Positions 8,901 through 49,075 of a stretch of 64,000 bases of DNA are shown here, one piece after another. Where the stretch lies: the NCBI GenBank assembly GCA_031409875.1, contig JANNYB010000133.1, positions 4,765 to 68,764 on the forward strand, in the 5' to 3' direction. Numbering within the stretch: the first letter of the stretch is position 1; each line of letters begins with the position of its first letter. The stretch is from Acidobacteriota bacterium. GTDB lineage: Bacteria; Acidobacteriota; Blastocatellia; Pyrinomonadales; Pyrinomonadaceae. A program made the position numbers and the translations under genes. The notes beneath the pieces are model-generated. The model was not told where the DNA came from. It was given only the letters and a program-made list of their open reading frames with translations, and did no database searches.

Positions 8901-9049
8901 GCCTTAACATTAAATGATTGCGAACCGTTTTTGATGTATAAATTTTCGCTTGATCGAAGATTTTTAGTCTGCGCCGAAATAAAACCAACGCCAAAAAACA
9001 TCGCCATCAAAGCAAAAAATAATTTCTTTGTAACGATAAAACCGAGCAT
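5945..9049 (-). CDS. CHAT-domain protein with TPR repeats (secreted or membrane-anchored)
   Basis: 1034 aa. N-terminal signal/anchor, beta-sandwich-like region, long TPR-like helical repeats. C-terminal CHAT His/Cys dyad (ILHFATHGFLN .. MVVLSACQTGLGK). Confidence 0.9.
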   Translation of the reverse strand: MLGFIVTKKLFFALMAMFFGVGFISAQTKNLRSSENLYIKNGSQSFNVKAENQDVISIGIKQNGVDVKVKLFNPAGVSVGESDYPFSEQDVEKIFVVAESGGIYRLEITAKFPDEIGFVDIKFDDLKRALPADLKRAEAEKLFSQAQILRATGKTSDRKKSAEIFENLLKLWREIDDKNGEIKTLSVLSYLNRILGNSEKSLEFANKVLAFPDSAENDLHKSDAFYQIGQIQNSRGEFAESIATMQKALALFSTPSPRQVNILTALAFFYQTDGEYEKAQKLFDEALENLRQFPDIYNEAQTRHLLGLFEFNSDEMEAAAKNFQIAADLREKFGNRRGQAISLTFLGMVLHSLKKFDEALKVFQKTLPISQEFDDRTNQFDILILVAHIYREKGDFPKALQIYDQCFALFENKDLTLYRTLYLSRGTANRQLSKFAESRRDLEKAQSLYRRSGDIGGEATALYQLAMLESVENQLDAAKTKIERALQLHEYEQAKHNNLRRLTRFIDQRRRFFDLYIDILMRLEKERPNENFALQALQVSENARMRTLIWQYREALKNTPQSVDFQIIQRIQKVQQQIGEQLSLLAKAQSDANQTDNIDEIEKTIAALNKEDETLKAELRESNPNLSNLAQPPTLSLPEMQAELDDNTVLVEYSLGTQRSYLWIVGKNSFQSFELPKRSEIEAQAKNFYETLSQNDNGTNRPIGKNRAKNNSAVKKDSAVESEKLGEMLLIKTLAQIPAKRIVFATDGALNLVPFASLTFFDETQNKKIYLAEKFDSVLLPSLTTLHILRQNNNKPFAPRSIAIIADPVFSANDARLAKNKRQKKETVSTDLSAVLRDFNLTTLSRLPFTRLEAENIAANSLPDTSLNLDFKASRERLLNGEFDRFDILHFATHGFLNNEHPELSGLVLSLFDEKGNSQNGFLRTQDLYLLKIKPQMVVLSACQTGLGKQFENEGVFGLTRGFLAIGTPRIIATLWKVDDAATAELMARFYRALIKENKKPSAALQTAQNELRQIPRFSHPRFWAGFVLTGEWR

Positions 9050-9170
9050 AATCTATTTATTATGAAGCACTTACAAATATAAATCCGCACCGAAAAAAAA
9101 GCAATATTTAAAACAATACGACTTTTCAAATTATCCATAAAACATTAGTCGTAGAGCATTTACGAAAAAG

Positions 9171-10157
9171 TTAATACCAAAGATAACCGACACGGGTTTT
9201 TACTTTAAGAGATGATTTAATTTTCGGACAGGGAATTTGGTTAGATTCGTTATCTTCACAATAATCATTTTTATTATCGTCAATGCTTCTGGAAATTTTG
9301 CCGACAGCACTGTTTTGATTGACTTTAGTGATAATGATTTCTTCTTGTGTTTCGCCAAAAAAAAGAATCATTCCTTCTTTTACTTTTTTATTTTTTCCCG
9401 CACCAATGGTTACAGTATAAAATGCCATTTCTTCAGTGTTTTGATAATCTTCTACGTCTTTTTCAGTTTCGATTGTGCGTTTCCCGACGGAAATTATTTT
9501 CGTTTCAATCGGAGAACGCTCAAACTTTTTATAGCTTACGGGAAGAACAGGCAAGCCTGTTAATTCTTTTTCGGAATCACCTGAAATCCAATAATTTGAC
9601 CATTTATGCAACATTTCGTCTTCATTGTTAGACGGTTCAATATAAATTCCAACGGCTTTTTCGGCAAAAGCCTCAAGCGAAGATTCTTCAACCAAATAAC
9701 GTCTTTCGCCCCAACTGACTTTTACAAATCTTTCCGGCAAAGATTTTCGCGGTGAATTACCCGAAAATTCGGGAAGTATTTCTACATAATCCGATGTATT
9801 TATAACATTGCCGTAGTTCATAGTCCGAAGTTCGGGATAACAAGTATAAAGGTAAAAACTAACAAATCCCGCTTTTGAATCCAAAATAAACAAATTAACT
9901 CCGAGTTCGGAAAACTCGTTGTTATATATGCCGTTCCATTCATCCGCAGATTTCGCGCTTTTAATTAAATCAAGTTTTTCTCTGAATTTTACGAGGTCTT
10001 CTCTTGAATATTTATCAAATCGAAAAGTAAGCGTCGGCGATTGATAAGGATAAAATTCCTGCATCCAATTTTCGCCTTCTTCAAACTCTTGCCCTAAACA
10101 AAATTGTATTGATAATCCTAAAATCAAAATCAGAATTGTGATGTTTCTTAATTTCAT
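9171..10157 (-). CDS. hypothetical secreted protein
   Basis: 328-aa ORF with signal peptide MKLRNITILILILGLSIQFCLGQ. No recognisable motif. Confidence 0.7.
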   Translation of the reverse strand: MKLRNITILILILGLSIQFCLGQEFEEGENWMQEFYPYQSPTLTFRFDKYSREDLVKFREKLDLIKSAKSADEWNGIYNNEFSELGVNLFILDSKAGFVSFYLYTCYPELRTMNYGNVINTSDYVEILPEFSGNSPRKSLPERFVKVSWGERRYLVEESSLEAFAEKAVGIYIEPSNNEDEMLHKWSNYWISGDSEKELTGLPVLPVSYKKFERSPIETKIISVGKRTIETEKDVEDYQNTEEMAFYTVTIGAGKNKKVKEGMILFFGETQEEIIITKVNQNSAVGKISRSIDDNKNDYCEDNESNQIPCPKIKSSLKVKTRVGYLWY

Positions 10158-10178
10158 AACTTTCCTATTCCAAAAATC

Positions 10179-10586
10179 TCAAATCAATTTCAAAAACTCG
10201 CTTGGCGAATAAACTTTCACCGTTGCATTTTTATAATCTTTTGCATTGCGCGTAACGATTGCGTCCAAGTTTTCCGCCAAAGCGCATTCGTGTTGGACGG
10301 CATCTTCGTAATCGGTAATCGGCGAAGTTAAGCCAGATTGCAAGTTTGTCGAGTCAATCGGACAAACTTTGACCAATTTCAATAATTTCTCCAATTCCTG
10401 CAAAACCGAATTTCTGCCGATTTCTTTTCTGCCGATGTAGTAAATATTGATTGCCGAAATACTTGCAATGTAAGCCACGAACTTATTTTGAGCAGCGGCA
10501 ATAAAAATCTGTTCGGCTTCGGCGAAAAACGGTTGTCGCGCCAAAACAAAATCCAAATTTACATCATTATCAAGCAAAACACGCAT
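10179..10586 (-). CDS. vapC: PIN-domain toxin (VapC-like)
   Basis: 135 aa. MRVLLDNDV.. N-terminal acidic motif, ..ITDYEDAVQ.., ..IVTRNAKDY. 1-nt overlap with the small upstream ORF. Confidence 0.8.
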   Translation of the reverse strand: MRVLLDNDVNLDFVLARQPFFAEAEQIFIAAAQNKFVAYIASISAINIYYIGRKEIGRNSVLQELEKLLKLVKVCPIDSTNLQSGLTSPITDYEDAVQHECALAENLDAIVTRNAKDYKNATVKVYSPSEFLKLI

Positions 10587-10834
10587 TATTTGTATTTCTC
10601 CGAAAGATGTTCATAGATAATTTCGCGTTCTTCTTCTCGCGTCATCGGTGGATTTTTCATTTTTAGACTTCCACCGAGACGTTTCACAATCGCCAGTTTT
10701 TCTTCGACTGATAATTCTTTTTCGGCGTTTCCGTTTTTCCGTCCGATGTTATCCGAAACTTTCTCGACAATTTCGCACTGTTCCGAAACCGGAAGCGTAA
10801 AAATTTCATTTAAGATTTCTGTCTGCGTCAACAT
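10586..10834 (-). CDS. putative antitoxin / addiction-module component
   Basis: 82-aa ORF directly upstream of and overlapping the PIN gene. N-terminal EILNEIFTLPVSEQCEIVEKV resembles addiction-module component proteins. Confidence 0.65.
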   Translation of the reverse strand: MLTQTEILNEIFTLPVSEQCEIVEKVSDNIGRKNGNAEKELSVEEKLAIVKRLGGSLKMKNPPMTREEEREIIYEHLSEKYK

Positions 10835-10855
10835 AAATTTATAAAACCTCCGAAA

Positions 10856-13357
10856 CTATTGTTTCAATTCTGCTATTGTAGCACCGTTTCCGCCTTGGTT
10901 TGAGGGCGCGAAGGAGAATTTGGAAATGTGCGGATGTCCTTTTAAGAAATGATGGACGAAGTTTTTTAACGCGCCGGTGCCGAAGCCGTGAATGATGCGG
11001 ACGCGAGGCAGTTGGGCGATGTAGGCTTCGTCTAAAAAGCGGTCAATTTCGTATTCGGCTTCGGCGGTTGTGTGTCCGATTAGGTTTAATTCGGCGTTTG
11101 CGTCTTCGGTGTCGAGTTGTAAATTTGAATCTTTCGCTTGATTTTGCAAAGTTTCCAAACGGTTTTCTTTTGGTTTTTCGTGAGTTTCGACGGCTTGCAG
11201 ATTTGATAATTTCTCGCGCAGACGCATTGCGCCAACGAGAACTTCCGCCATTTCTTTGTCAATTTTTTCGACTTTTCCGACACCGAAATTTGTCAGAACT
11301 TTTGAGCCGATTGCGATTGGTTTATTGGTTTGTTCGATGTTCGTTGGGGAATTTAGCTGATTGCTATTAGCTGATAGCTTTTGGCTGTTTTGTGGATTTT
11401 GGACTTTTGAAAGAACGGCGCGATTGAGTTCAGCCTTTCGTGCGAGTCGCTCTTTTTCGAGTTTGGTTTTTAACGCTTTGTCTTCGATGGTGTTGATAAA
11501 AGCGCGAGATTGGCGTTCAAATTCTTCGATTGTTTGGGCAAGTTCGCGCTCAAATTGCTTTTGGCGTTCACGTTCTTTTTTGCCGGCTTCGATGTCGAGT
11601 CTGGCGTATTTCATTGCGACAACTTCGCGTTCATCTTCGAGTGCAACGCGCAAATCGGTCGCAATTGTTGTTTCGGTTTGCAATTTTTTGAGATAATTTT
11701 CAGCTTCTTGCGATGAAATATCAAGATTTTTTCGTGCGATTTCAATCACATCATCACGAATTCCAAAACGTCGTGCAATCTCGATTCCGCTTGATGCACC
11801 GGCAAGTCCGACAAGTAATTTATATGTCGGTTGCAGAGTTTTTTCGTTAAATTCGACGCTCGCATTGATGACATTTTCATCGTTCGCAGCATAAATTTTT
11901 AATCCGCGATAATGTGTCGAAGCAATAACTTGTGCGCCGCAATTTCGGCGGAAAAAATCAACAATCGCCACGCCCAAAGCCGAACCTTCTTCGGGATCAG
12001 TTCCGGTGCCGACTTCGTCCAATAAAACGAGCGAAGGCGCGGAACATTCGCGCATCATTTCGGCGATATTTGAAATATGCGAGCTAAAAGTCGAAAGATT
12101 CGCGCTCAAAGATTGATGATCGCCGATGTCTGCGAGAACCGATTTGTAAAAGGGAATTTTCGCCTCCCGCGCTGGCACAGGCAAACCTGAAATTGCCATT
12201 AAACTCAGCAATCCGGCAGTTTTCATCACGACAGTTTTGCCGCCCGCGTTTGCGCCGGAAATTATCATTACGGATTTTTGTTTGGTTAATTTGAAAGATG
12301 TCGGAACGATGTCAGAACCGCCTGCGGTAGCGGGTGGTTGAAGTTTAGCGGTTGGGATGTTTGCCGATGATTCAGACCGTTGAGTTAAACCGCCCGCTAC
12401 CGCAGGCGGTTCTGACTTTCGCAAGTTTTCCTCAAGTAATGGATGCCGCGCATCAATCAAATCTAATGTTTCATCGTCGGAAATTGTCGGCACAATCGCT
12501 TTGAAACTTCGCGCAAATTCGACTTTGGCTTTGATAAAATCGAGTTCCGTAACGGCTTCGACCGCCGCTTCGATTGCCGGAAGTTGTTCGCGTAATTCTT
12601 CCGTTAAAGCGAATAAAATTCGGGCAATTTCACGTTCTTCTTTGCCTTTGAGATTTTGCAGTTCGTTGTTCGCTTCGATGACTTCGAGCGGTTCGATGAA
12701 AACCGTTGCGCCGCTCGATGAAAAACCGTGCGCCACGCCACCGACTTTGCCGCGAAAATCGGATTTTACCGGAATGACATAACGCTCGTTTCGTTGCGTA
12801 ACAATCGCATCTTGAATTGCGTCGCCTGCGTTTCGCATCGTGCTTTCGAGAGCTTTTTGCAATCGTCCGCGCTGATTGTTTATTTCGCGTCTTAATCTTG
12901 CAAGTTCAGGCGAAGCCGAATCGTCAATTTCGCCGCTCGGCAGAAGTTTTTTGTTGATTTTATCAATTGCCGCAAAAAGCGTCGGCGGAATATTTTCGAC
13001 AATTTCCCACAAAACCGGCGCAAATTCTTTTTCGGGCGAAATTGCCGAACGCGCAAAAAGTGCTTGATTGCAAACTCGCGTCAGTTCGAGCAAAATTATC
13101 GGTTCGAGCGTCGCGTTTTTGATTCGCAAAATCGCTATCGCATCGCTTGGGTCTTCGAGTCCGCTAAATGACCACGAAACTTGTTTTACTTCATTGAGCA
13201 AAATTGTTTCCGCGATTGCCTTTAAATCTTTTTCGAGTTCGAGCCGCGAATGAACGGGCGCGAGATTTTCAAGCCGCGATTTGCCCGTCGGCGTTTGTGC
13301 AAAACGCGCAATGAGTCGGCAAAGTTTTTCGTATTCGAGAGTGTTTAATGATTGCAT
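10856..13357 (-). CDS. mutS2: endonuclease MutS2 (MutS domain V ATPase + C-terminal Smr)
   Basis: Walker A GANAGGKTVVMKT, DEVGTGTDPEEG, Smr tail LNLIGHTTAEAEYEIDRFLDEA..RIIHGFGTGALK. The ORF track starts at 13393 (alternative start); ATG at 13357 (MQSLNTLEYEKL) is the more plausible start. Confidence 0.93.
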   Translation of the reverse strand: MQSLNTLEYEKLCRLIARFAQTPTGKSRLENLAPVHSRLELEKDLKAIAETILLNEVKQVSWSFSGLEDPSDAIAILRIKNATLEPIILLELTRVCNQALFARSAISPEKEFAPVLWEIVENIPPTLFAAIDKINKKLLPSGEIDDSASPELARLRREINNQRGRLQKALESTMRNAGDAIQDAIVTQRNERYVIPVKSDFRGKVGGVAHGFSSSGATVFIEPLEVIEANNELQNLKGKEEREIARILFALTEELREQLPAIEAAVEAVTELDFIKAKVEFARSFKAIVPTISDDETLDLIDARHPLLEENLRKSEPPAVAGGLTQRSESSANIPTAKLQPPATAGGSDIVPTSFKLTKQKSVMIISGANAGGKTVVMKTAGLLSLMAISGLPVPAREAKIPFYKSVLADIGDHQSLSANLSTFSSHISNIAEMMRECSAPSLVLLDEVGTGTDPEEGSALGVAIVDFFRRNCGAQVIASTHYRGLKIYAANDENVINASVEFNEKTLQPTYKLLVGLAGASSGIEIARRFGIRDDVIEIARKNLDISSQEAENYLKKLQTETTIATDLRVALEDEREVVAMKYARLDIEAGKKERERQKQFERELAQTIEEFERQSRAFINTIEDKALKTKLEKERLARKAELNRAVLSKVQNPQNSQKLSANSNQLNSPTNIEQTNKPIAIGSKVLTNFGVGKVEKIDKEMAEVLVGAMRLREKLSNLQAVETHEKPKENRLETLQNQAKDSNLQLDTEDANAELNLIGHTTAEAEYEIDRFLDEAYIAQLPRVRIIHGFGTGALKNFVHHFLKGHPHISKFSFAPSNQGGNGATIAELKQ
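12311..12416. repeat. 106-bp palindromic element embedded in frame inside mutS2
   Basis: GTCAGAACCGCCTGCGGTAGCGGGTGG .. CCGCCCGCTACCGCAGGCGGTTCTGAC. It encodes SEPPAVAGGLTQRSESSANIPTAKLQPPATAGGSD in MutS2, just N-terminal of the Walker A region. Confidence 0.85.
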
Positions 13358-39325: not shown

Positions 39326-39406
39326 TTTTGAGTCCCGCCTTCAGGCGGCGTTGTCAGTTCGCCGCGGTTCGCTGGCGACCTGCCGCCTAAAGGCGGGACT
39401 CAAAAC
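39325..39406. repeat. 82-bp palindrome of the GAGTCC family
   Basis: GTTTTGAGTCCCGCCTTCAGGCGGC .. GCCGCCTAAAGGCGGGACTCAAAAC. It overlaps the stops of both convergent genes. Confidence 0.9.
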
Positions 39407-40832
39407 TTTTCGGTTCAACTAAAATCGTCTTAAAACTTGCCAAACTCACAAGCCCAAGTGCCGAGCCTTTCTGTTTATTGACGAATTTTTTTGGCGTGTA
39501 ATGCACGGCAACTTTGGGCTGTTCGCGGGCAGTGCTGTAAAACGCGGCAAATTGTGCGGCTTCGAGCAGAGTTTTCTGCGGGATTTCTGCGCGATTCGGA
39601 TTTTTAACGACAACGTGCGAACCCGGATAATCTGCCGCGTGAAGCCACAAATCGTTTGATTTTGCCACACGAAATGTCAAAAAATCATTATCTTTTGCGC
39701 CTTTTCCAACCAAAATTTCAAAACCGTCGGACGAAATAAATTTTCTCGCGCATTTGATAGTTTCGGCAGATTTAACTTTCGATTTTGCTGAAACTTTTTC
39801 CGGTTTTTCGCCGATAAATTCATCTAAAACGGATTCGTCTTTTTCCGTAATCGCCGTTTCGAGTTCGGTAATTCGTAATTCGTAATTCGTAATTTGTAAT
39901 TCAAGAGCCGCCAAACGCTTGGCAATTTCTTGTTTCGCATTTCGGGCTTTCGTATATTTTTTGAAAAACTTTTCGGCAGCGTGCGTCAATTCATCATTTT
40001 CATCAACCTCAATTTCCAGCGTCGGAATATTTTCATCAAAATAATCAACGACTAAAACTTTATTTTCAATCCGCACCGCGTCAGCCAAATTCGCCAAAAT
40101 CAAATCGCCAAACCGTTTCCACGTCTCAGCGTTACCGTGTTTCGCCAAATCCGCATTCAAATTCGCAACCTGTTTTCCGCGCTTTTTTAATTCCTGATTC
40201 AACTTGCTTCGAGCCGCATTCGCCTTAGACTTAAAGGCATTTTCCACCTCTTTTTCCAGATAAAAATTATCAAGACTCTCAGACAAACTCTCAAAATCTC
40301 CCAACGGAAAAATCTCCTCGTCTCCTTTTCTCACTTTCTCCCCTTCTCGAACCGGCGGCGCGAATTTCTGTCCAACCAACTGTCCTTCGCCCGAATTTTC
40401 GCGGCTGGCATCAATAATAAAGCCGCGTTCATCGAGCAGAAAAAGATTCGCCGAACGTCCCGTTAATTGGACGATTAAGCCGAGATTTTCCGCTTGCCCG
40501 ATTTCGCTCACGGCTGAAAAATCAAATCGCAAAATGCGTTCGTCTTTAAACTTTTCGATGTTTTCCAAAATTGCATTTGAAAGTTTTTTTCGCAGATGCA
40601 GAAGAAAAGGCGCAGGATTTTTTGATGATTTTTCCAAATCGCGCAAGCGTCTTTTGATCAAAAAAATACGCGGCGCAGAAGGTTCAAAACTGATAAAAAG
40701 ATAGCGCGAATCGTTAAGCCGAAAATCAATCGCCAACTGAAACCGCGAAAGAGGAAAAATTTTGCCGAACTTTCGCCCGCACAAAACAGACGAAAGCTCG
40801 GCACTTATGTTTTCGAGTGTTGAATTGTTCAC
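39387..40832 (-). CDS. NFACT-family ribosome quality control protein (RqcH/FbpA-like)
   Basis: C-terminal NFACT-R/DUF814 signature DGFEILVGKGAKDNDFLTFRVAKSNDLWLHAADYPGSHVVV. The N-terminal NFACT-N-like domain starts at VNNSTLENISAELSSVLCGRKFGKIF. The ORF-track start at 40967 overlaps the upstream gene and crosses a heptamer array, so GTG 40832 is proposed; the start remains uncertain. Confidence 0.8.
   Translation of the reverse strand: MNNSTLENISAELSSVLCGRKFGKIFPLSRFQLAIDFRLNDSRYLFISFEPSAPRIFLIKRRLRDLEKSSKNPAPFLLHLRKKLSNAILENIEKFKDERILRFDFSAVSEIGQAENLGLIVQLTGRSANLFLLDERGFIIDASRENSGEGQLVGQKFAPPVREGEKVRKGDEEIFPLGDFESLSESLDNFYLEKEVENAFKSKANAARSKLNQELKKRGKQVANLNADLAKHGNAETWKRFGDLILANLADAVRIENKVLVVDYFDENIPTLEIEVDENDELTHAAEKFFKKYTKARNAKQEIAKRLAALELQITNYELRITELETAITEKDESVLDEFIGEKPEKVSAKSKVKSAETIKCARKFISSDGFEILVGKGAKDNDFLTFRVAKSNDLWLHAADYPGSHVVVKNPNRAEIPQKTLLEAAQFAAFYSTAREQPKVAVHYTPKKFVNKQKGSALGLVSLASFKTILVEPKSFESRL
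39868..39903. repeat. heptamer array GTAATTC x5 inside the rqcH-like CDS
   Basis: GGTAATTCGTAATTCGTAATTCGTAATTTGTAATTC. It encodes ..LELQITNYELRITELE.. on the minus strand. Confidence 0.85.
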
Positions 40833-40842
40833 TTTGTGAATT

Positions 40843-40878
40843 TCAGATTCCAGATTCCAGATTCCAAATTCCAAATTA
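40843..40878. repeat. heptamer array CAGATTC x3 / CAAATTC x2 between RDD-family gene and rqcH-like gene
   Basis: TCAGATTCCAGATTCCAGATTCCAAATTCCAAATTAG. Confidence 0.85.
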
Positions 40879-40905
40879 GTTAATTTAAATCTGAAATCTG
40901 GAACC

Positions 40906-42159
40906 TTAAATCTCCTTAACGACAATCGTTCCCGAAGCGATGTCATGAACGGCGCGTTTTTCTTCATTAAAAGGCAATGTTAGGAAACCTGCGCCGCCGA
41001 AAGCCAACGAAAGCAGATAAAGCGACGCGCTGACTGCGGCTTGATGGATTGACGGGTAATTTTCGCCTTCGATGTCCACGACTTCGAGCGAAAACAGGCG
41101 CATTCCGAGCGTTCTGCCGTAAAACCCGACGGCGACCGTCATATAAACGAACATCACGCCCGCGCAAACTGCCAAAAATCCCAAAAATCCGCCGAATGTG
41201 AACCAACCGCCTTTCAACATAAACGGCGAAAGTAAAATCAAAGACGCAAACGAACCGATAATCAAATCGAAAAGTCCGGCATTAAAGCGCATTGCAAACG
41301 GCGCGATGTCTTCGATTTCTTCTTCCGCTTCGACGAGCTTTAATTCAGTTTTTTGAATTTCTTCGTCCACGACCGTTTTATGCAAATCGTCTGAATTGGT
41401 TTTGTGAATATCGAATGTTGCGGAAACTTCATCCGGCAACGGCGGCAATTTGTTGGTGTCAAATGTTTTCGCCTCGGTTTTTAGTGTTCCGATGTGGCGC
41501 GGTTTGATGGTTTGATTTATCGTCGCCGGTTTCGGATCGGGCAAAATCTCGCCTTCTCTGGCAGCAATGCGAAACGGATAATTTTTCTGCGGCACAGGCG
41601 TTTCTTCAACCGCAACGGGCGCAAGCGCAACTTCTTCCGCAACGATAAACTGCCGCCGCGAATTGGCAATGCGCTGTAAAGCCGCATTTAACGTCGGATT
41701 CGCGTGTGAAACGGCGGAAATCTCCGGCGTTGGTTCCGGCGCAGGTTCGTATTGCGGTTGGAGTTTGAGCGCGTTTGCGCCGCTCGTCATCGCCATCGGC
41801 TGTGAATTCGCTACACCGTAATCCAAATCTTGACGTTTCCGCACGGCGTTTTGAATTTGCAAACGCCATTCGGGAAGCGTGGAGTTTTTGCTTTGAAATT
41901 CAACTAAAGTCGGAGCCGTGTTTTTGGCGGGAATTTCGCGTGTGTCAGGCTTTGCCGAAGCAAGCCGCACATTGTTAATTGGCAATTCTTGTTTTTTCGG
42001 AATGTTCAAAATTTCTCTTTTCTCCATAATTTTTGGTTTTGAAATCGGAGTTATTTTTACTTCCAACTCTTCACGAACCTTGTCATTGATCATCGCTCCG
42101 CAACTCGGACAGATTGACAAGTCGGCGTGGTTTTCTCGATTACAAACAGGACAATTCAT
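40906..42159 (-). CDS. zinc-ribbon + RDD-family membrane protein
   Basis: N-terminal MNCPVCNREN..CPSCG. C-terminal RDD-like region FNAGLFDLIIGSF..YGRTLGMRLFSLEVV..RAVHDIASGTIVV with 3 TM helices. Confidence 0.8.
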   Translation of the reverse strand: MNCPVCNRENHADLSICPSCGAMINDKVREELEVKITPISKPKIMEKREILNIPKKQELPINNVRLASAKPDTREIPAKNTAPTLVEFQSKNSTLPEWRLQIQNAVRKRQDLDYGVANSQPMAMTSGANALKLQPQYEPAPEPTPEISAVSHANPTLNAALQRIANSRRQFIVAEEVALAPVAVEETPVPQKNYPFRIAAREGEILPDPKPATINQTIKPRHIGTLKTEAKTFDTNKLPPLPDEVSATFDIHKTNSDDLHKTVVDEEIQKTELKLVEAEEEIEDIAPFAMRFNAGLFDLIIGSFASLILLSPFMLKGGWFTFGGFLGFLAVCAGVMFVYMTVAVGFYGRTLGMRLFSLEVVDIEGENYPSIHQAAVSASLYLLSLAFGGAGFLTLPFNEEKRAVHDIASGTIVVKEI

Positions 42160-42419
42160 AGATTTTTAAAGATTGATAATACCGGATATGAATTTTTTTG
42201 AGACGGAAAATTCTTGATATGAACTAAACTGAAAAAATAATATCAGAGATTACTTTAAGTAGTCAATAGTAAATTGTGCAAACAATGAAGATTTTTGATT
42301 TATATTTATCTTCATTCGTGATTTTACCGAATTCTTCGAGTATTTTTTTTTACAAAAATGTAAAATTTAGCTTGCAAATTTTTTTATTTGAGATTATTAT
42401 CGCTTCGCTTAGCAAAATT

Positions 42420-42623
42420 TTAATTTTTAAAACATTTTATGTGTCCGTATTGCATTAATGGACTAAAAAAGTTTTGACTTTTACAATTTTCAAGGCTCTT
42501 TGACATATTTAAGTTCCGGCTTTTATCAGAACAATAGCAATAAACATTTTCGGTCAAACAATCATCATTTATGAATCTACAACGACCGATTCCAAGTTGC
42601 GAAGATAAATTGAAATTCTGCAC
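42420..42623 (-). CDS. possible small Cys-rich ORF (very tentative)
   Basis: 67 aa with 7 Cys (CRFINDDCLTENVYCYCSDKS..) in an AT-rich region that is otherwise noncoding. No clear RBS seen. Confidence 0.2.
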   Translation of the reverse strand: MQNFNLSSQLGIGRCRFINDDCLTENVYCYCSDKSRNLNMSKSLENCKSQNFFSPLMQYGHIKCFKN

Positions 42624-42906
42624 AAAGTTTTACAAAGACTGATTTTATCAACGCAAAAACCATTTACATTCAACCGAAACCGTCCGTGTCATCAGTGCCA
42701 CGGGCATTCATTACAAAAGAGAGCAATCATCATTTTCCCAAAGAAACCGCTGTTAAATTTGGCATCAGAGGCAGAAACACGCGCGTTAGCAAGTGTGTTA
42801 AACCCATCTTTTGAGCAAAAGCACTTCAAACAGCAAACTTTGGCTAATTACAAGAGGTAATTCCCTAAATTATTTCAAAAACCCGAGGAGGTAATTAACA
42901 AAGAAT

Positions 42907-43251
42907 ATGAACGCATTACACAAAGCCGAACTCAATATGCAAAGCGGCATCGAACACCAACCCGATGCCAACATCCCAATCATTGAAACCGTCCGCGCAT
43001 TTTCGACGACCTTCAATAACCAAAAGGCATCCAAAGCCCAAACCAAACCTGCCAACGGCGGACAAAAATCGCCGCGCACAGGCTTTGCTCCCGCTAAATC
43101 TGCGTCAAAAAGAGCATTACGCAACACAACTTTAACAATCGCCACCGAAAAATGCACAATCCGTGTAACTAAGACAAGTTTTACAAACTTTGAAGTCTTC
43201 GACTTCGAGATCAAATTTGGCGATATTACGACTTTGAATACTGTAAATTGA
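42907..43251 (+). CDS. hypothetical 114-aa protein, first ORF of the AT-rich island operon
   Basis: Strong RBS GAGGAGG 8 nt upstream of the ATG. Basic, disordered-looking middle with a beta-rich C-terminus. Preferred over the overlapping minus-strand ORF 42870-43316, which has no RBS. Confidence 0.6.
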   Translation: MNALHKAELNMQSGIEHQPDANIPIIETVRAFSTTFNNQKASKAQTKPANGGQKSPRTGFAPAKSASKRALRNTTLTIATEKCTIRVTKTSFTNFEVFDFEIKFGDITTLNTVN

Positions 43252-43292
43252 TATTGAATCTTATAAAATAATCTAAATAATTTACCAAACAT

Positions 43293-44771
43293 ATGGAAGA
43301 GAATACTTATCAGCATACAATGGACATAGCTCGATACACTTTTTTTGTTGTAAATATTGCTTGTGTTATTTTTGTTGCTGCTGTTTATGGCTTTGCTTTT
43401 AAGTTTCTTGACAATAAGTTTTATCGGACAATCGCCATAGGTTGGGTAACAAATGCTATTTATTTAACATTGGAAACTTACTTCTTCATTTTGAATGATA
43501 CAAAAAATGATACCTTGTCTTATATCATCCTTACTATTTCGTTATTATCTACACTGATTTTTCATTATGCGATAAATAGAGACGAAAAATTTCTCCAAAG
43601 AGTTAAATTTATAGCTAGATTCAAGCCCTTATACGGGCTAATTCCAATAACTCTTTGTGTTATCGGAATGATTTATGCAAGTAATGCCGCTTATGACCAT
43701 AAATTTTGGTTTTCTCTGTTCTTAATGCCGACAATTCTTTATTCTTTTATTATACTAAGTTTAATTTCATACCGTTTTTTCATATCCTTTCCAGACGATG
43801 AGTTCGGACTTAGTTCCACTATACTTTATGGTTCCTGGGGAATTTATGGTGTCATACAATTTTATTATCCATTAGCAATCTTCAATAAAGAAATAGAAAC
43901 TGTTCAGACGCTATCCTTTTCCATATTTGTTCTTGCCTTTGTTTTAAAGATACTTAACATCATCGGACTTCTCAACGTCCTTCAGAAAGAGTATTCAAAT
44001 TTACAAGGGGAAAATCTTCAATATTCTGTTCATCAAGAAGTTGGCGAACTTGCCGCCGGCTTGCATCATGATATTAAGTTGCCTTCCGCGTTAATTGACG
44101 GTGAACTAACACTTCTTGAGACTGATAAACCTAATGACGCAAGAATAAAAGCTTTTATTAAACCTGTAAGAAAGGCAAATAAAATGATTTCTGAAACCGT
44201 TAAGTTGGTAGATATGATTCAACTTGACCCTAAACAGATTTCACAAAGATTTAAGAAATTACATGTTGGAACACTAATTTCATCCGCCAGAGGCTTTTAT
44301 AATAGAGCAATCAAAGAAAACAGTCTAAAAATAGTCAAGTCAGAACAGCCTATCCCAACTGCATATGTGTTTGCAAATGAAGAACTTTTGACTCAAGCAT
44401 TTTTTAATATCATGAAAAATGCTAAGGAGTCTTTAGCAACATTATTAGAGATTCAAGTTCAGAAATCTGATACGAACCCCAAAAATATAGAATTTTTATT
44501 TTTTAATAATGGCGAAATTATTTCGGATGATGAAATGGATAATTGCTTTAGGGCGGGGTGGTCTTCTGAAAAGAAGAGAGAAAGAAGAGCAGATGAGGGT
44601 AATGTTGGGATGGGATTATATATGTGTTTTAGAATAATTGCCTTTCACCGTGGAAAGATTGAAATTTTCAGGTTTGATGAAGCATCCAAATCAAACAAAA
44701 CTTTCAAAAAAGAAGAGTTTTCCAAATATAAAGTTGGTGTGAGAATAACTCTTCCAATTGCATCTAATTAG
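43293..44771 (+). CDS. polytopic membrane sensor histidine kinase
   Basis: 492 aa. ~6-7 TM helices, H-box ELAAGLHHDIKLP, N-box FFNIMKNAKES, G-box GNVGMGLYMC. Confidence 0.85.
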   Translation: MEENTYQHTMDIARYTFFVVNIACVIFVAAVYGFAFKFLDNKFYRTIAIGWVTNAIYLTLETYFFILNDTKNDTLSYIILTISLLSTLIFHYAINRDEKFLQRVKFIARFKPLYGLIPITLCVIGMIYASNAAYDHKFWFSLFLMPTILYSFIILSLISYRFFISFPDDEFGLSSTILYGSWGIYGVIQFYYPLAIFNKEIETVQTLSFSIFVLAFVLKILNIIGLLNVLQKEYSNLQGENLQYSVHQEVGELAAGLHHDIKLPSALIDGELTLLETDKPNDARIKAFIKPVRKANKMISETVKLVDMIQLDPKQISQRFKKLHVGTLISSARGFYNRAIKENSLKIVKSEQPIPTAYVFANEELLTQAFFNIMKNAKESLATLLEIQVQKSDTNPKNIEFLFFNNGEIISDDEMDNCFRAGWSSEKKRERRADEGNVGMGLYMCFRIIAFHRGKIEIFRFDEASKSNKTFKKEEFSKYKVGVRITLPIASN

Positions 44772-44788
44772 AAAATAAGGAGATAAAT

Positions 44789-45535
44789 ATGCCTGAAGAA
44801 ACTGTAAATACTAAGAGCGAAAAAAAATTTATTAAAGTCGACCGAGATGAACTTTCAAAGAACCTTGGGGAAGTTCTTGTTGTAGATGATAATGGAATTT
44901 ATACGGATTTAATAAGTCGGAACCTAACTTCAGTTGGATTTGAATCTAAATCTATAAATTCCTTTGTCCAAATGGAATCAATACTCGAAGAAAAACACTA
45001 TCCTTTGATTCTTTGCGATAATATTGATGACAAATCAACTCTCAAAGGAAGCGAAATAATATTAAATAATAATCATCTTTTCAAAGATTCAAGAACAGTT
45101 CTTGTTACAGGTCATCCATTAAGCCAGATCAAAGATCAAAATGAATTGTTAAAAAGAGGAGTAATAGTATTACAAAAAGGCGAGGGGCATGTTGATGAAA
45201 TAATCAAGATTTGTAGAGAGACCTTTACTAATAAAGTTGAAGCCATTGCCCAAGAAGCTGAAGATTATGTTGGCAAATTGCTTTTAAATTACAAAGACAT
45301 GCCAAAATTAGACAATCCAACTCCATACGAAAAGCTAATAAAAAGAACAAGACTAAGATTTAAAGATTACATTAGTAAGCTGCCAAATCCAGACTCGCCA
45401 CAATTTTTTATTAAAGGAAAAGGTTTAAGTCCTAATCAAGTAATGTTTGAAATTGAAAAAGATGATTCCGAAATAGGAGTTTTGTTAATTGATATTTTAT
45501 TGGAGGATATTTTAGAAGGAGAAATTTATGATTAG
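44789..45535 (+). CDS. receiver (REC) domain protein with unassigned C-terminal domain
   Basis: RBS AAGGAG. VLVVDDNG, PLILCDNID (putative phospho-acceptor Asp), VLVTGH, VLQKG. The C-terminal ~100 aa are unassigned, with no HTH recognised. Confidence 0.8.
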   Translation: MPEETVNTKSEKKFIKVDRDELSKNLGEVLVVDDNGIYTDLISRNLTSVGFESKSINSFVQMESILEEKHYPLILCDNIDDKSTLKGSEIILNNNHLFKDSRTVLVTGHPLSQIKDQNELLKRGVIVLQKGEGHVDEIIKICRETFTNKVEAIAQEAEDYVGKLLLNYKDMPKLDNPTPYEKLIKRTRLRFKDYISKLPNPDSPQFFIKGKGLSPNQVMFEIEKDDSEIGVLLIDILLEDILEGEIYD

Positions 45536-46247
45536 AAAGTTAATAAAAAAGTTAATAAATTGGATACGCCGCAAAAAAGAAGATGAAGAAGAAAATGAGG
45601 AAATTGTTTCCCAAGATTATCAACACTCATTATTTGTCCCTACTTATGATGTAGCGACTCAAATAATTACAAATTGGACAAAGAGTTGGCAATTACCTAA
45701 TGTATTAGTGTTTTATGGAAATAAGGCTAGTCACGAGAATGCAATCAATAGACTAAATCATAGTAATCAGTTGCGTGTCATTGCATTTGTTGGACATGGA
45801 AATGTATCGGAACTTCTCACAGATATGAGTATCGGAAAACCCTCTATTAGTATTGATCATGGATGTTTAATGAATTGTGAAGACATAATAGAAGAACTGT
45901 CTGGCGTTCATATAATTGCTTGGTCTTGTAGTTCAAGTCAAACATTTGGAAGAAAAATTGGAAGCTTCCCAAAATGCGGTTTTTGGGGATTCAACGAAGA
46001 GATTGTGATGCTTGTTAATCCAGAAAGTGAAACATTATGGAGTGGTTTAATTAAGGGAGTTATTTCAAGAATTATGAGCAAAAACCACATCCATGTTGAT
46101 GATAAAAAATGGTTTAGAAAAGAGGTTTCAACAGTAACAAGGAATATCGAAGATGGTGAAATTAACACTGGTAGTCACGAATATAATAGGCTTAATTCAT
46201 TGTTTCTTAGACGAATTGCACGAAGTTTAGAAGTTCACCCTAGATAG
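45528..46247 (+). CDS. small caspase/CHAT-fold-like protein (His/Cys dyad) - tentative
   Basis: 239 aa. 8-nt overlap with the REC gene. LRVIAFVGHGN (His codon 45795-45797) and VHIIAWSCSSS (Cys codon 45927-45929) lie 44 residues apart, each after a hydrophobic strand, as in caspase-fold proteases. Confidence 0.55.
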   Translation: MIRKLIKKLINWIRRKKEDEEENEEIVSQDYQHSLFVPTYDVATQIITNWTKSWQLPNVLVFYGNKASHENAINRLNHSNQLRVIAFVGHGNVSELLTDMSIGKPSISIDHGCLMNCEDIIEELSGVHIIAWSCSSSQTFGRKIGSFPKCGFWGFNEEIVMLVNPESETLWSGLIKGVISRIMSKNHIHVDDKKWFRKEVSTVTRNIEDGEINTGSHEYNRLNSLFLRRIARSLEVHPR

Positions 46248-46256
46248 GAGGAAAAT

Positions 46257-46547
46257 ATGTTTTTTGTTACAATTAAAAATTTTTTGACGGATGTAAAGAC
46301 TCTACTTTCAAATCAAGATGAAGAATTAATAAGTTCTGATAAAAATGATGACCCAAATATAATTTCATTAGGAACTAGTAAAAAAGATAAGAAAGAAGCT
46401 ATTGCTAGAACTTTTGCTCAATTAGCTTTGACCTTATTCGTAATAGGATTATGTCTGTATGTCGTTAGCACAAAATCTGAGGGCGGTATAGGCGAGAAAC
46501 TCGCGTATACAGGGTTTGGAGTAGTCTTTGGTTATTGGTTTAGGTGA
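46257..46547 (+). CDS. small membrane protein (soluble N-terminus + 2 TM helices)
   Basis: RBS GGAGG 6 nt upstream. 96 aa. FAQLALTLFVIGLCLYVV and LAYTGFGVVFGYWF. Confidence 0.7.
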   Translation: MFFVTIKNFLTDVKTLLSNQDEELISSDKNDDPNIISLGTSKKDKKEAIARTFAQLALTLFVIGLCLYVVSTKSEGGIGEKLAYTGFGVVFGYWFR

Positions 46548-46642
46548 GTTAATTATTCAAATTCTTTCCGAGAAATCCAATCAACTTTGCAATCAATGAC
46601 AAGTTGGATTTTGTCTATTGCATTGCTGTTTTCGGCGCGATT

Positions 46643-46762
46643 TTAGCGGTCGAAGATTTTTTTGAAGTCAACTTTGATGCCTTCGCTTTCGATGGTTTGG
46701 TTGGTGAATTTTTGTTTCCCGTTTTTGGTGATAACGAAGATTGTGTTGGTAAAAGATGGCAA
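46643..46762 (-). CDS. 39-aa small ORF, paralog of 48493-48627 (possibly decayed)
   Basis: Below the ORF-track cutoff. TTG start, (M)PSFTNTIFVITKNGKQKFTNQTIESEGIKVDFKKIFDR. ~85% nucleotide identity over ~100 nt to the 48.5-kb copy. Confidence 0.4.
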   Translation of the reverse strand: MPSFTNTIFVITKNGKQKFTNQTIESEGIKVDFKKIFDR

Positions 46763-46830: not shown

Positions 46831-47088
46831 GTGAAGATTATGACGCATTCATTGACTTTAGATTTACCCGAAGAAATTTATCAACTGCTTTTGAAAACTG
46901 CGTTGACAAACGGCAAAAAGGTTGAGGAAGTTGCGGTTGAGGTGTTGGCAAGTGTGAAAAGAAAGAAGGTTGCAGACCCTTTTGAAAGGTTTATCGGTTC
47001 GGTGCGAAGCGATATTACCGATTTAGCTGAAAACCACGACAAATACATCGGCGAAAATTTAGCGCAAGACTTGAACGGTAATAAATAA
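46831..47088 (+). CDS. VapB-type antitoxin-like protein
   Basis: 85 aa (ATG at 46840 is the more likely start). LTLDLPEEIYQLLLKTALTNGKKVEEVAVEVL. Its stop abuts the ATG of the PIN pseudogene (TAAATG). Confidence 0.7.
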   Translation: MKIMTHSLTLDLPEEIYQLLLKTALTNGKKVEEVAVEVLASVKRKKVADPFERFIGSVRSDITDLAENHDKYIGENLAQDLNGNK

Positions 47089-47712
47089 ATGAAAGGTATT
47101 TTCGTTGATACCTTCGGGTTGGGCAAGTCTGGTGGTTGAAACACAGACTTTTCACACAAAAGCAAAAGAAATTTACCAAACGGCGTAATGCGCCAACAAA
47201 AAGTTAAAAGACTGGAGCGCGAGCGTCCCCGCTTGCAATGAGTGTTTGCTTCAAACGCGAAAAAGCGTCGGAGTTCCATTCAAGTTTATTCAATGCCAAC
47301 GCCTTTACACCGCTAAAAAACAGCGGCGTTTGCAAGCGGGGACGCTCGCGCTCCAGTCAGAACTTTTTGTTGGCGCATTACCAAACGGCAATATCAGACC
47401 AAACGCCTCTGCTGACAACGAATTATATTTTGACCGAACTTGTTGCTTTACTGACAAGTCCGCTCAGATTATCTCGTCCGCGAGTTATCGCGCATTGTTG
47501 AAGGAATAAAAACCTCGCCATTCTTTGAAATCATCCATATTGACAAAGATTCGGATAAAAGAACTTGGGAATTACTGAAAAATCGCCCTGATAAAAAATG
47601 GAGTTTAGTTGATTGCTCAAGTTTTGTCGTGATGCAAGCAAGAGAAATATCCGAATCATTAACCACCGACCATCATTTTGAGCAAGCCGGTTTTATCAGA
47701 CTTTTGAAATAA
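47089..47712 (+). pseudogene. vapC: PIN-domain VapC toxin gene destroyed by MITE insertion and at least 2 frameshifts
   Basis: The pieces read MKGIFVDTFG / WASLVVETQTFHTKAKEIYQTA / [MITE] / ISDQTPLLTTNYILTELVALLTSPLRLSRPRVIA / IVEGIKTSPFFEIIHIDKDSDKRTWELLKNRPDKKWSLVDCSSFVVMQAREISESLTTDHHFEQAGFIRLLK, spread over three frames. Confidence 0.85.
47186..47380. mobile_element. 195-bp MITE with terminal inverted repeats and flanking direct repeat
   Basis: TIRs (G)TAATGCGCCAACAAAAAGTT..GACTGGAGCGCGAGCGTCCCCGCTTGCA and the inverse at the other end. Flanked by CCAAACGGC on both sides (47176-47184 and 47381-47389). Removing the element rejoins the vapC reading frame ..KEIYQTA-ISDQ... Confidence 0.88.
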
Positions 47713-47785: not shown

Positions 47786-48043
47786 GTGGAGATGACGACA
47801 AACGAACAAACATATCAATCCGTCTTATTCAAGTTGAGCCGTGTGCCGGTTGAATCGCTGCCGCAGATAGACGCTTATCTTGAAAACTTTACGCCCGAAA
47901 ACGGCGCGAAACGGCAAAACCGCGAGGCGATTCTGGCATTGGCGGGAAGTTGGAATGAAATGTCCGAAACGGATTTTGGGGAATATCTTTCCGAAGCTAA
48001 ACGGAGCGGCGGCGAAACATTCAACCGCGATGTTACATTATGA
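47786..48043 (+). CDS. antitoxin of VapBC-like pair
   Basis: 85 aa. 4-nt overlap (ATGA) with the downstream PIN gene. Confidence 0.75.
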   Translation: MEMTTNEQTYQSVLFKLSRVPVESLPQIDAYLENFTPENGAKRQNREAILALAGSWNEMSETDFGEYLSEAKRSGGETFNRDVTL

Positions 48044-48447
48044 AACCCGCCATTATTGATACTGACACAACCTCTTACTTTTTTCGCAACAATGCCAATG
48101 TCGTGGCTAAACTTGAAGAATATTTGCAAGAACACGGCTTCGTTTATCTCAGCGTGGTAACATATTACGAAGTTCTCAACGGATTGTATTTCAAAGACGC
48201 AAAAAATCAATTGGCACAATTTGAAAAATTCATAAAACTCAATCAAGTTCTGCCGCTTACCAACCAAATTGCTCGAAAATCAGCTAAACTATATGCCGAA
48301 TTGCGTAGAAAAGGACATAACATCGGACATAACGATGTCTTGATTGCAGGGACGGCAATCGTCAATGACTTAACCTTAATAACGAACAACGTCCGCCATT
48401 TTTCCAGAATTAAAGAGTTGGACATTGACAATTGGGCGGAAGAATAA
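48040..48447 (+). CDS. vapC: PIN-domain toxin VapC
   Basis: 135 aa. MKPAIIDTDT.., ..TYYEVLNG.., ..HNDVLIAGTAI.., ..LITNNVRHF. Confidence 0.88.
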   Translation: MKPAIIDTDTTSYFFRNNANVVAKLEEYLQEHGFVYLSVVTYYEVLNGLYFKDAKNQLAQFEKFIKLNQVLPLTNQIARKSAKLYAELRRKGHNIGHNDVLIAGTAIVNDLTLITNNVRHFSRIKELDIDNWAEE

Positions 48448-48627: not shown

Positions 48628-48687
48628 TTTTTTTACCTCAAATTTAATGAATTAATTATCTCATAGAAAAATTGATATGAAAAGAAA

Positions 48688-49068
48688 TTAAAGCGGTTGT
48701 CGTCCGGCGAAACCTGTGTCGGTTTCGTGCCACCATTCTAATTTATCGCTGTCGCCGAATTGCCAGCAGAGGAGGACGATGCGACCTTCGCGGAGGGAAG
48801 GGAAATCTATTAAGCCGCGTGTGTAATCTTTTAGTTGGATGCCGAGTTCGTGGATTTCGGTGGTGTGTTTGCCGATTTCGTAGAGCGATTTAACGTATTC
48901 CGAGCCGCCGGACATTCCGCCGCCGCCGGATTCGTTGCCTGCCGTTGCCGCCGCTCTTGCAGATTCGCGGTAGAGCGACATTTTTTCGTATTCACGTTTT
49001 ATTTTTTCGAGCTGCGGGCGCACGAATGTGAGTATTTCGTTGGCTTCGCTGACGGTGAAAAGTTTCAT
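48688..49068 (-). CDS. DUF2203-family protein
   Basis: 126 aa. MKLFTVSEANEIL..VRPQLEKI.. and ..GIQLKDYTRGLIDFPSLREGRIVLLCWQFGD..LEWWHE pattern. Confidence 0.75.
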   Translation of the reverse strand: MKLFTVSEANEILTFVRPQLEKIKREYEKMSLYRESARAAATAGNESGGGGMSGGSEYVKSLYEIGKHTTEIHELGIQLKDYTRGLIDFPSLREGRIVLLCWQFGDSDKLEWWHETDTGFAGRQPL

Positions 49069-49075
49069 AGCTTTT

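Follow-up and report, generated by a model that had tools for sequence, protein, structure and literature searches.

A conserved four-gene island module that may link a two-component phosphorelay to a candidate caspase-fold protease

Two-component systems are overwhelmingly transcriptional. Proteases with the caspase fold play central parts in the immunity and cell death of animals, plants and fungi, and recent work has shown the same for bacteria. Whether the two can be wired together is the question raised by four co-directional genes in a 64,000-nucleotide stretch of an Acidobacteriota contig (JANNYB010000133.1, positions 4,765 to 68,764, family Pyrinomonadaceae; hereafter the window). On the forward strand they encode a histidine kinase (43293-44771, 492 amino acids), a receiver protein carrying a REC domain (44789-45535, 248 amino acids), a candidate caspase-fold protease, here called P4 (45528-46247, 239 amino acids), and a small membrane protein, P5 (46257-46547, 96 amino acids). 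The successive spacers are 17, -8 and 9 nucleotides; these coordinates and spacers had been given in an initial annotation of the window, and we reproduced them exactly from the list of open reading frames (ORFs). The GGAG-type ribosome-binding site that the same annotation placed before each gene is present upstream of the receiver, P4 and P5 genes, and none was found at the kinase start. We know of no caspase-fold protease that is switched by His-Asp phosphotransfer. Our reading is that the locus may be a mobile four-gene signalling-to-proteolysis module, that is, a phosphorelay whose output would be proteolysis, and we give this reading slightly better than an even chance.

Family and predicted fold of P4

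P4 has no match in Pfam, NCBIfam, PADLOC, PHROGs or the PDB sequences. A word-indexed search of 5.8 billion proteins recovered one relative at 49% identity, and an exhaustive HMMER search of 1.84 billion proteins delineated a family of 41 representative clusters, all of 200-250 residues. In the family alignment (37 sequences), G91, C134 and G154 are invariant, and at least 90% of the members share D41, W50, F87, G89, H90, G141 and L227. The His and Cys whose strand-end layout, 44 residues apart, had drawn attention to this protein are H90 and C134, which form the conserved pair of the family (36/37 and 37/37, respectively).

The AlphaFold2 model built from this alignment (predicted local distance difference test, pLDDT, 93.2; predicted template-modelling score, pTM, 0.85) begins with a basic helix (residues 2-24) and continues as beta1(33-37)-alpha-beta2(59-63)-alpha-beta3(83-88)-hairpin-beta4(127-132)-alpha-beta5(151-155), followed by three helices and beta6(234-237). 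The F-x-G-H90-G motif comes directly after the strand 83-88, and S-C134 directly after the strand 127-132. In caspases the catalytic dyad lies in the motifs SHG and QACRG, and the position of the GHG and SC134 of P4 at strand ends points to the same geometry. As modelled, P4 would thus show the features of protease clan CD, namely a conserved His in an H-G motif after beta3, a Cys after beta4, and an alpha/beta/alpha sandwich, the last also suggested by the ranking of structural matches.

According to Foldseek against the PDB, the model resembles, in order, metacaspase, C11 protease, PIGK, Craspase TPR-CHAT, caspase-7, gingipain, legumain, separase and Raptor; the best E-value belongs to a metacaspase (7qp0, 2.5e-3), and the highest probability and template-modelling score (TM-score) to Craspase TPR-CHAT (probability 0.99, query-normalized TM-score 0.45). 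In BFVD, each of the five best matches is annotated as a caspase or metacaspase. Caspase-fold matches reach probabilities of 0.90-0.99, and non-caspase folds 0.2-0.5. Sub-threshold Pfam matches among the 37 members comprise C25 in two (0.033), C50 in two (0.08) and CHAT in one (0.17); clan CD is the sole protease clan among them, and the C50 match spans the His-Cys segment. Because two libraries agree, the dyad is conserved and the sub-threshold protease matches all fall in clan CD, P4 is predicted to be a minimal clan CD-like cysteine protease candidate that belongs to a rare new family of about 230 residues. The caspase-type fold suspected in the initial annotation is thus supported by structural comparison, clan CD proteases heading the PDB list and caspases the BFVD list, at marginal E-values. 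None of the 37 members matches Peptidase_C14 or CHAT (PF12770) significantly, the best E-value for CHAT being the 0.17 given above; judged from the model, P4 is CHAT-like in shape and, by sequence, not a CHAT member.

Partners of P4 and conservation of the unit

The kinase combines an H box with the N, G1 and G2 ATP-binding boxes, as expected of a two-component kinase. Its HATPase_c domain is recognized by Pfam (2.4e-8), residues 248-462 align with many full-length kinase models of NCBIfam, and H259, N376, N437, G439 and G441 are invariant in seven kinase homologues, which agrees with the H, N and G boxes read earlier from the translation; HisKA is matched weakly in three of the seven. His259 is the predicted phospho-acceptor. 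The N-terminal ~230 residues consist, by hydropathy, of hydrophobic helices with short loops, amounting to about seven transmembrane (TM) helices, and no Pfam model matches this region in any of the seven homologues. Within the TM region, residues Y185 and Q189 are invariant in the seven homologues.

The receiver scores 20.0 bits against Pfam Response_reg, below the gathering score of 30.2, and its homologues in two related loci (L008 and L010) match the same model at E <=1e-5 in a precomputed Pfam table. The acidic pair, the phospho-acceptor Asp, the Thr/Ser and the Lys of a receiver are all present (D33, D34, D77, T107 and K130) and conserved in the homologues, so kinase and receiver retain every residue needed for phosphotransfer. 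A word-indexed protein search returned no receiver relative, and a profile search yielded only the receiver of L010. The protein is divided into a REC part (~28-130), a long helix (134-166) and an acidic helical C-terminal domain (179-248). Its AlphaFold2 model, based on a three-sequence alignment (pLDDT 69), resembles receiver structures in Foldseek (E 3e-8); the C-terminal domain of about 70 residues is modelled as a helix, a hairpin and two helices with an acidic tail, and for this domain Foldseek matches, which cover the REC part only, and family searches gave nothing. No DNA-binding or helix-turn-helix family was matched in Pfam or NCBIfam, and the last 45 residues carry a net charge of -8 in the window and of -3 to -11 in the homologues. 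Such an acidic tail argues against DNA binding, and the receiver appears to be without a DNA-binding output, in keeping with what had been supposed from its sequence.

P5 has a conserved helix at its N-terminus (MFxxhRxF), then a basic linker that varies, a TM helix (49-70) and a Gly-zipper C-terminus with the motif AxxGxGxxxGYW[FLI][RK]; the homologues end in GYW[FLI][RKS], and the window protein ends in GxGxxxGYWFR. Two TM helices had been proposed for it. The first passes the Kyte-Doolittle threshold, and it alone does so; the second is a short Gly-rich segment at the C-terminus. Neither Pfam nor PADLOC gave a significant match. Homologues of P5, 79-96 amino acids long, are encoded directly 3' of P4 in L003-L008, L010, L020 and L021.

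The related loci were obtained by 12 look-ups of the encoding contigs, and they span GC contents of 0.30-0.70 and P4 identities of 21-49%. The order kinase-receiver-P4-P5 recurs in L006, L008, L010/L011/L012 and L020, where the P5 gene of L008 was uncalled (8688-8948) and the receiver gene of L020 is frameshifted; the short contigs L003, L004, L005, L007 and L021 hold the receiver C-terminus followed by P4 and P5. The co-occurrence on which the initial annotation had staked its operon is therefore found elsewhere, and the four genes form a conserved unit, which recurs in about ten unrelated environmental bacteria. Chance adjacency of unrelated genes was considered and rejected on the synteny over about ten loci. 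An overlap of 1-8 nucleotides between the receiver and P4 genes, present in nine of ten loci, suggests that their translation is coupled. A scan of genome contigs with a P4 profile from the first alignment gave no match, and a scan of metagenome contigs with P4 gave only the L003 contig.

Beyond the four genes no further neighbour is conserved with the module in the related loci, whether transcription factor, sigma factor, enzyme or acceptor-related gene, and the neighbourhoods are accessory or mobile. In L010 (JGI 3300032070, Ga0315279_10005275), the kinase is immediately preceded by a DDE transposase, and the neighbourhood also holds a DUF4143/PDC-S01 fragment. L009 (JGI 3300062721, Ga0599163_0000126) has a conjugative-element context with TrwB, relaxase and N6/N4 methylase; here, kinase, receiver and P4 are followed directly by a 163-amino-acid multi-TM protein (9144-9635) and then by a paralogous polytopic kinase paired with a receiver-coiled-coil-2TM protein (9940-12180). 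This second pair suggests that the sensor family is wired to more than one output, one of them embedded in the membrane. The neighbours in L008 are DUF3300, DUF2950, SnoaL and a 5'-3' exonuclease.

Two further observations were made in these neighbourhoods. On the 3' side of the module in L010 (9904-15259), a pair of genes encoding proteins of ~195 and ~64 amino acids is repeated in four tandem copies, for which no family match was obtained. Just 3' of P5 in L005 (1513-1896), a two-TM protein of 127 amino acids gives a weak match to PF20712 (CyanoTRADDas_TM, cyanobacterial TRADD-N-associated 2TM; 8.7e-5; 23.0 bits, cut-off 24.3).

Proposed mechanism, competing explanations and known relatives

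From the invariable adjacency of the kinase and receiver genes we infer phosphotransfer between their products. In the proposed scheme, the ~7-TM kinase would sense an event in or at the membrane, autophosphorylate His259 and phosphorylate Asp77 of the receiver, whose acidic C-terminal domain would hold P4, both proteins being made 1:1 through the start-stop overlap. The phosphorylated receiver would dimerise or rearrange and so turn P4 on, either through proximity or by lifting an inhibition; proximity or dimerisation is how initiator caspases become active, and proteases are gated in a similar way by RssB and CpdR. Once active, P4 would probably cut after Arg or Lys, which is proposed because Asp41 is conserved at the start of helix alpha1, a position that we take to be that of the metacaspase S1 Asp for Arg/Lys specificity. 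The targets of P4 would include, or be reached via, P5, serving as anchor, substrate or membrane-active effector.

Several results weigh against this proposal. The Foldseek E-values of P4 lie between 2.5e-3 and 5e-2, none reaching 1e-3, with TM-scores of 0.33-0.45; no significant sequence-profile match links P4 to a curated caspase family in Pfam, NCBIfam or the PDB, and an hhalign comparison of the P4 family with an approximate human caspase-3 sequence gave a probability of 1.4%. The C-terminal domain of the receiver is modelled with moderate confidence (pLDDT ~65-80, three sequences), and its supposed contact with P4, a pairing of acidic tail and basic head that is suggestive in most loci, is unsupported across loci (Spearman -0.16, p 0.67, n=10). 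L009 holds kinase, receiver and P4 without P5, and L019, too short upstream to judge, has no P5 downstream, so P5 may be dispensable. For a function in defence, the neighbour evidence is anecdotal, coming from about five loci without an enrichment statistic; no PADLOC match was found for any of the four proteins (E <=1), and no homologue was found in the PLSDB plasmids and the INPHARED phages by tblastn with P4 and P0036, or in IMG/VR.

What the module would do for the cell, and what P4 would do within it, can be read in several ways. A role in defence or cell death is plausible. One specific form of it is an immune or programmed-death switch, in which the kinase detects an envelope perturbation by phage or another invader, the phospho-dimerised receiver activates the mini-caspase through induced proximity, and cleavage of the cytoplasmic P5 head frees a membrane-disrupting peptide; in this full detail we consider it unlikely. 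Also unlikely, in our estimate, is a housekeeping-type envelope-stress circuit, in which P5 would regulate the kinase (cf. MgrB/PhoQ and LiaF/LiaS) and P4 would remove P5 as feedback, so that the cell adapts. The absence of an extracytoplasmic domain from the kinase, its conserved intramembrane motif Y185/Q189 and the GxGxxxG-YWFR C-terminus of P5, which is of helix-packing type and suits TM-TM contacts, would all fit such a circuit, as would the lack of PADLOC matches and the ordinary genes around the module in L008. However, such a circuit would act on nothing but itself, since the loci have no transcription factor, sigma factor or enzyme in common beyond the module; L009 retains the other three genes without P5; and the rarity and patchy occurrence of the module, its place on an island and its absence from close relatives are unusual for a physiological stress pathway.

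The other two alternatives concern the chemistry of P4. It might be a non-hydrolytic caspase-fold enzyme, either of PIGK/GPI8 or asparaginyl-ligase type attaching part of P5, or a silent scaffold like Raptor. PIGK (7wld_K, rank 4), the OaAEP1 ligase and Raptor are among its structural matches, and the terminal motif of P5 after a hydrophobic segment loosely recalls C-terminal sorting or attachment signals. However, the Foldseek ranks, at E-values of 2e-3 to 5e-2, do not separate subfamilies, few members of clan CD are transamidases or ligases, the neighbourhoods share no acceptor-related gene, and the invariant Cys and near-invariant His speak against a silent scaffold; we regard this explanation as quite improbable. 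Very improbable in our view is that P4 lacks the caspase fold altogether and owes its likeness to coincidence, being a generic Rossmann-like alpha/beta protein such as a receiver-binding adaptor or a phosphatase. The weak E-values and TM-scores and the missing sequence-profile match would be explained in this way, and PLP-enzyme (pyridoxal phosphate) and periplasmic-binding-fold matches are indeed interleaved in the PDB list. In both of the independent libraries, however, the top and highest-probability matches have the caspase fold; the pair of polar residues with the strongest conservation closes two successive parallel strands at their C-terminal ends, as it does in caspases (GHG and WSCSS in P4, SHG and QACRG in caspases); and no protease family outside clan CD occurs among the sub-threshold Pfam matches.

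Read as a phosphorelay ending in proteolysis, the module can be compared with several described systems. To our knowledge, Detocs is the sole defensive two-component family. It consists of the TPR-kinase DtcA, the stand-alone buffer receiver DtcB and the receiver-effector fusion DtcC, whose effectors vary among PNP, REase, Toprim and TM types (Rousset et al. 2023, bioRxiv 10.1101/2023.01.24.525353). In both systems kinase-receiver phosphotransfer drives, or in the module would drive, a potentially toxic effector and not transcription; outputs appear swappable, as suggested on the module side by the paralogous kinase of L009 with its REC-2TM protein; and the genomic contexts are accessory or mobile. 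Unlike Detocs, with its soluble TPR kinase, buffer receiver and fused effector, the module has a ~7-TM kinase free of TPRs, a single receiver and separate, unfused putative effector proteins, and no PADLOC model matches the module.

The gasdermin-protease systems and Craspase TPR-CHAT (7xsr, 7y84) share with the module, as predicted, a caspase-fold Cys protease that is off until a signal arrives and a membrane-targeting partner encoded adjacently. However, P5, with its 79-96 amino acids and without a Pfam or PADLOC match, is not a gasdermin; no pore-forming protein of the gasdermin family and no other conserved neighbour stands beside P4. P4 (~230 residues) also differs from the Craspase/CHAT modules in having no TPR, SAVED or other sensor domain and in failing the CHAT and Peptidase_C14 models, and, whereas caspase-fold immune modules are triggered by RNA, nucleotides or protein, P4 would be triggered by phosphorylation. 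Metacaspases and orthocaspases (Peptidase C14B) share with P4 the predicted fold and a His-Gly...Cys dyad whose residues close beta3 and beta4. They differ in that Peptidase_C14 matches 0/37 P4 members; P4 is much smaller, no p10-type linker or calcium-binding loop is identifiable in it, and a bundle of three helices takes up its C-terminal part instead.

On the side of the receiver, the nearest parallels are RssB (ClpXP/RpoS) and CpdR (ClpXP), which have no DNA-binding output and whose phosphorylation state controls proteolysis, as that of the module receiver would. RssB structures are among the matches of the receiver model, and CpdR and RssB among its weak NCBIfam matches. Both supply ClpXP, a general AAA+ protease, with substrates, whereas the module pairs its receiver with a dedicated, co-transcribed caspase-fold enzyme, as predicted, and the PP2C-like domain of RssB is unrelated to the C-terminal domain of the module receiver in the searches run. 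In two conflict-system papers of the Aravind laboratory, receivers are mentioned solely as kinase-independent effectors. No system composed of kinase, receiver, caspase-fold protein and small membrane protein was found in the full-text literature searched or in PADLOC, and the earlier statement that such a composition is undescribed holds within these sources. The module is rare and combines known building principles with new wiring and four uncharacterised domains.

Detocs, through its direct effector, and RssB and CpdR, through gated proteolysis, changed how the two-component pathway is viewed. The immune or death switch, if true, would provide the first example of His-Asp phosphotransfer directly gating a protease of caspase type, and its protease would rank among the smallest known enzymes with that fold; the envelope-stress loop, if true, would be a new mode of kinase regulation via proteolysis of a small membrane protein. 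The module is compact and clonable, and with the obvious sites for point mutants at H259, D77, H90 and C134 the question of a phosphorelay-gated caspase is addressable. The P4 family of ~230 residues, with its high-confidence model, is attractive for defining the minimal requirements of the caspase fold; the 7-TM sensor domain, the acidic receiver output domain and the GYWFR membrane peptide are uncharacterised parts as well. The module may also add a new system of anti-phage or growth-arrest type from soil phyla that are poorly sampled.

The island, its borders and its other cargo

The four genes lie in DNA that the initial annotation described as an AT-rich island with its own codon usage, and both base composition and GC3 (GC at third codon positions) agree with that description. 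In 500-nucleotide intervals, a trough with GC of 0.29-0.35 extends over ~42000-46750, against 0.42-0.52 in the flanks. The four-gene stretch has a GC of 0.324, whereas none of 205 segments of equal length elsewhere in the 64 kb falls under 0.381; its GC3 is 0.22-0.28, against 0.42-0.58 for the neighbouring host genes, whose GC is ~0.44. The four-gene cassette is taken to have been acquired horizontally.

Relatives of the site were found by a genome scan with the adjacent RDD-family protein. In L014, a Blastocatellaceae metagenome-assembled genome of 85-90% nucleotide identity, the segments corresponding to window positions 48684-49069 (DUF2203) and 42302-38621 (RDD and NFACT) are only 47 bp apart, and the same empty site is seen in the more distant L017 (Pyrinomonadaceae). 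Because its flanks sit 47 bp apart in L014, the segment 42303-48683 is regarded as an insertion; the empty site in this close relative substantiates the island. It is a strain-specific genomic island of 6.4 kb with a GC of 0.356, against 0.435 in the rest of the window, and comprises a leader, the four-gene module and two toxin-antitoxin-like cassettes. Elements that would account for the mobility of the island were looked for, and the search for a tRNA, an integrase, flanking direct repeats, terminators and Rfam elements was negative.

The leader 5' of the kinase gene (42303-43292, forward strand) is AT-rich (GC 0.29-0.30 at 42000-42750) and non-coding, with a doubtful ORF of 114 amino acids inside it (42907-43251, forward strand). 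The initial annotation had placed this ORF, with a ribosome-binding site of its own, at the head of the operon. Its GGAGG ends 15 nucleotides from the ATG, and its GC of 0.44 is flat over the three codon positions (0.41/0.45/0.47); it was called by Logan and not by NCBI, had no tblastn match in any related locus, and gave no family match in the Pfam, NCBIfam and PADLOC scans. Being not AT-rich, uncalled by NCBI and without a counterpart in the related loci, it was rejected as a member of the module; it probably stands outside the module and is possibly non-coding. The leader has no Rfam match, and promoter-like hexamers are not enriched in it relative to shuffled sequence.

A different insertion occupies the same chromosomal site in L015 (CALMEH010000364.1:1-700), which is 86% identical. 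Its leader, ~650 bp long and AT-rich, contains about a dozen degenerate '...TTT(A/T)CA....GCAA...' units spaced every 21-23 nucleotides, and shares with the window leader the blocks 42258-42410, 42478-42527, 42720-42758 and 42835-42897. The two sequences diverge just past the common GGAGGTAATTA, where the L015 contig ends. This common leader could act as a promoter, a regulatory region or a recombination site that is reused for different cargo.

Downstream of P5, all on the forward strand, the island continues with an antitoxin-like ORF of 85 amino acids (46831-47088), put forward from the ORF list and a reading of its translation and without a Pfam match, and a decayed PIN-like remnant (47238-47501), likewise assigned tentatively from its translation. 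They are followed by a VapBC-type cassette (47786-48447), in which an 85-amino-acid antitoxin-like ORF overlaps by 4 nucleotides with an intact PIN-domain, VapC-like toxin (48040-48447; Pfam PIN 1.9e-13). The GC of these toxin-antitoxin-like cassettes is 0.39-0.49, unlike that of the four-gene module, so the island looks mosaic.

Two observations concern the host backbone next to the island. The segment 35328-38480 encodes a protein of 1050 amino acids with three FHA domains, an ABC ATPase and an ABC-2 permease, an unusual fusion of phospho-peptide reader and transporter. On the reverse strand, the NFACT/RqcH-like gene (39387-40967) and the zinc-ribbon/RDD gene (40906-42159), each taken as its longest ORF, overlap by 62 nucleotides (40906-40967), and the true NFACT start probably lies further downstream.

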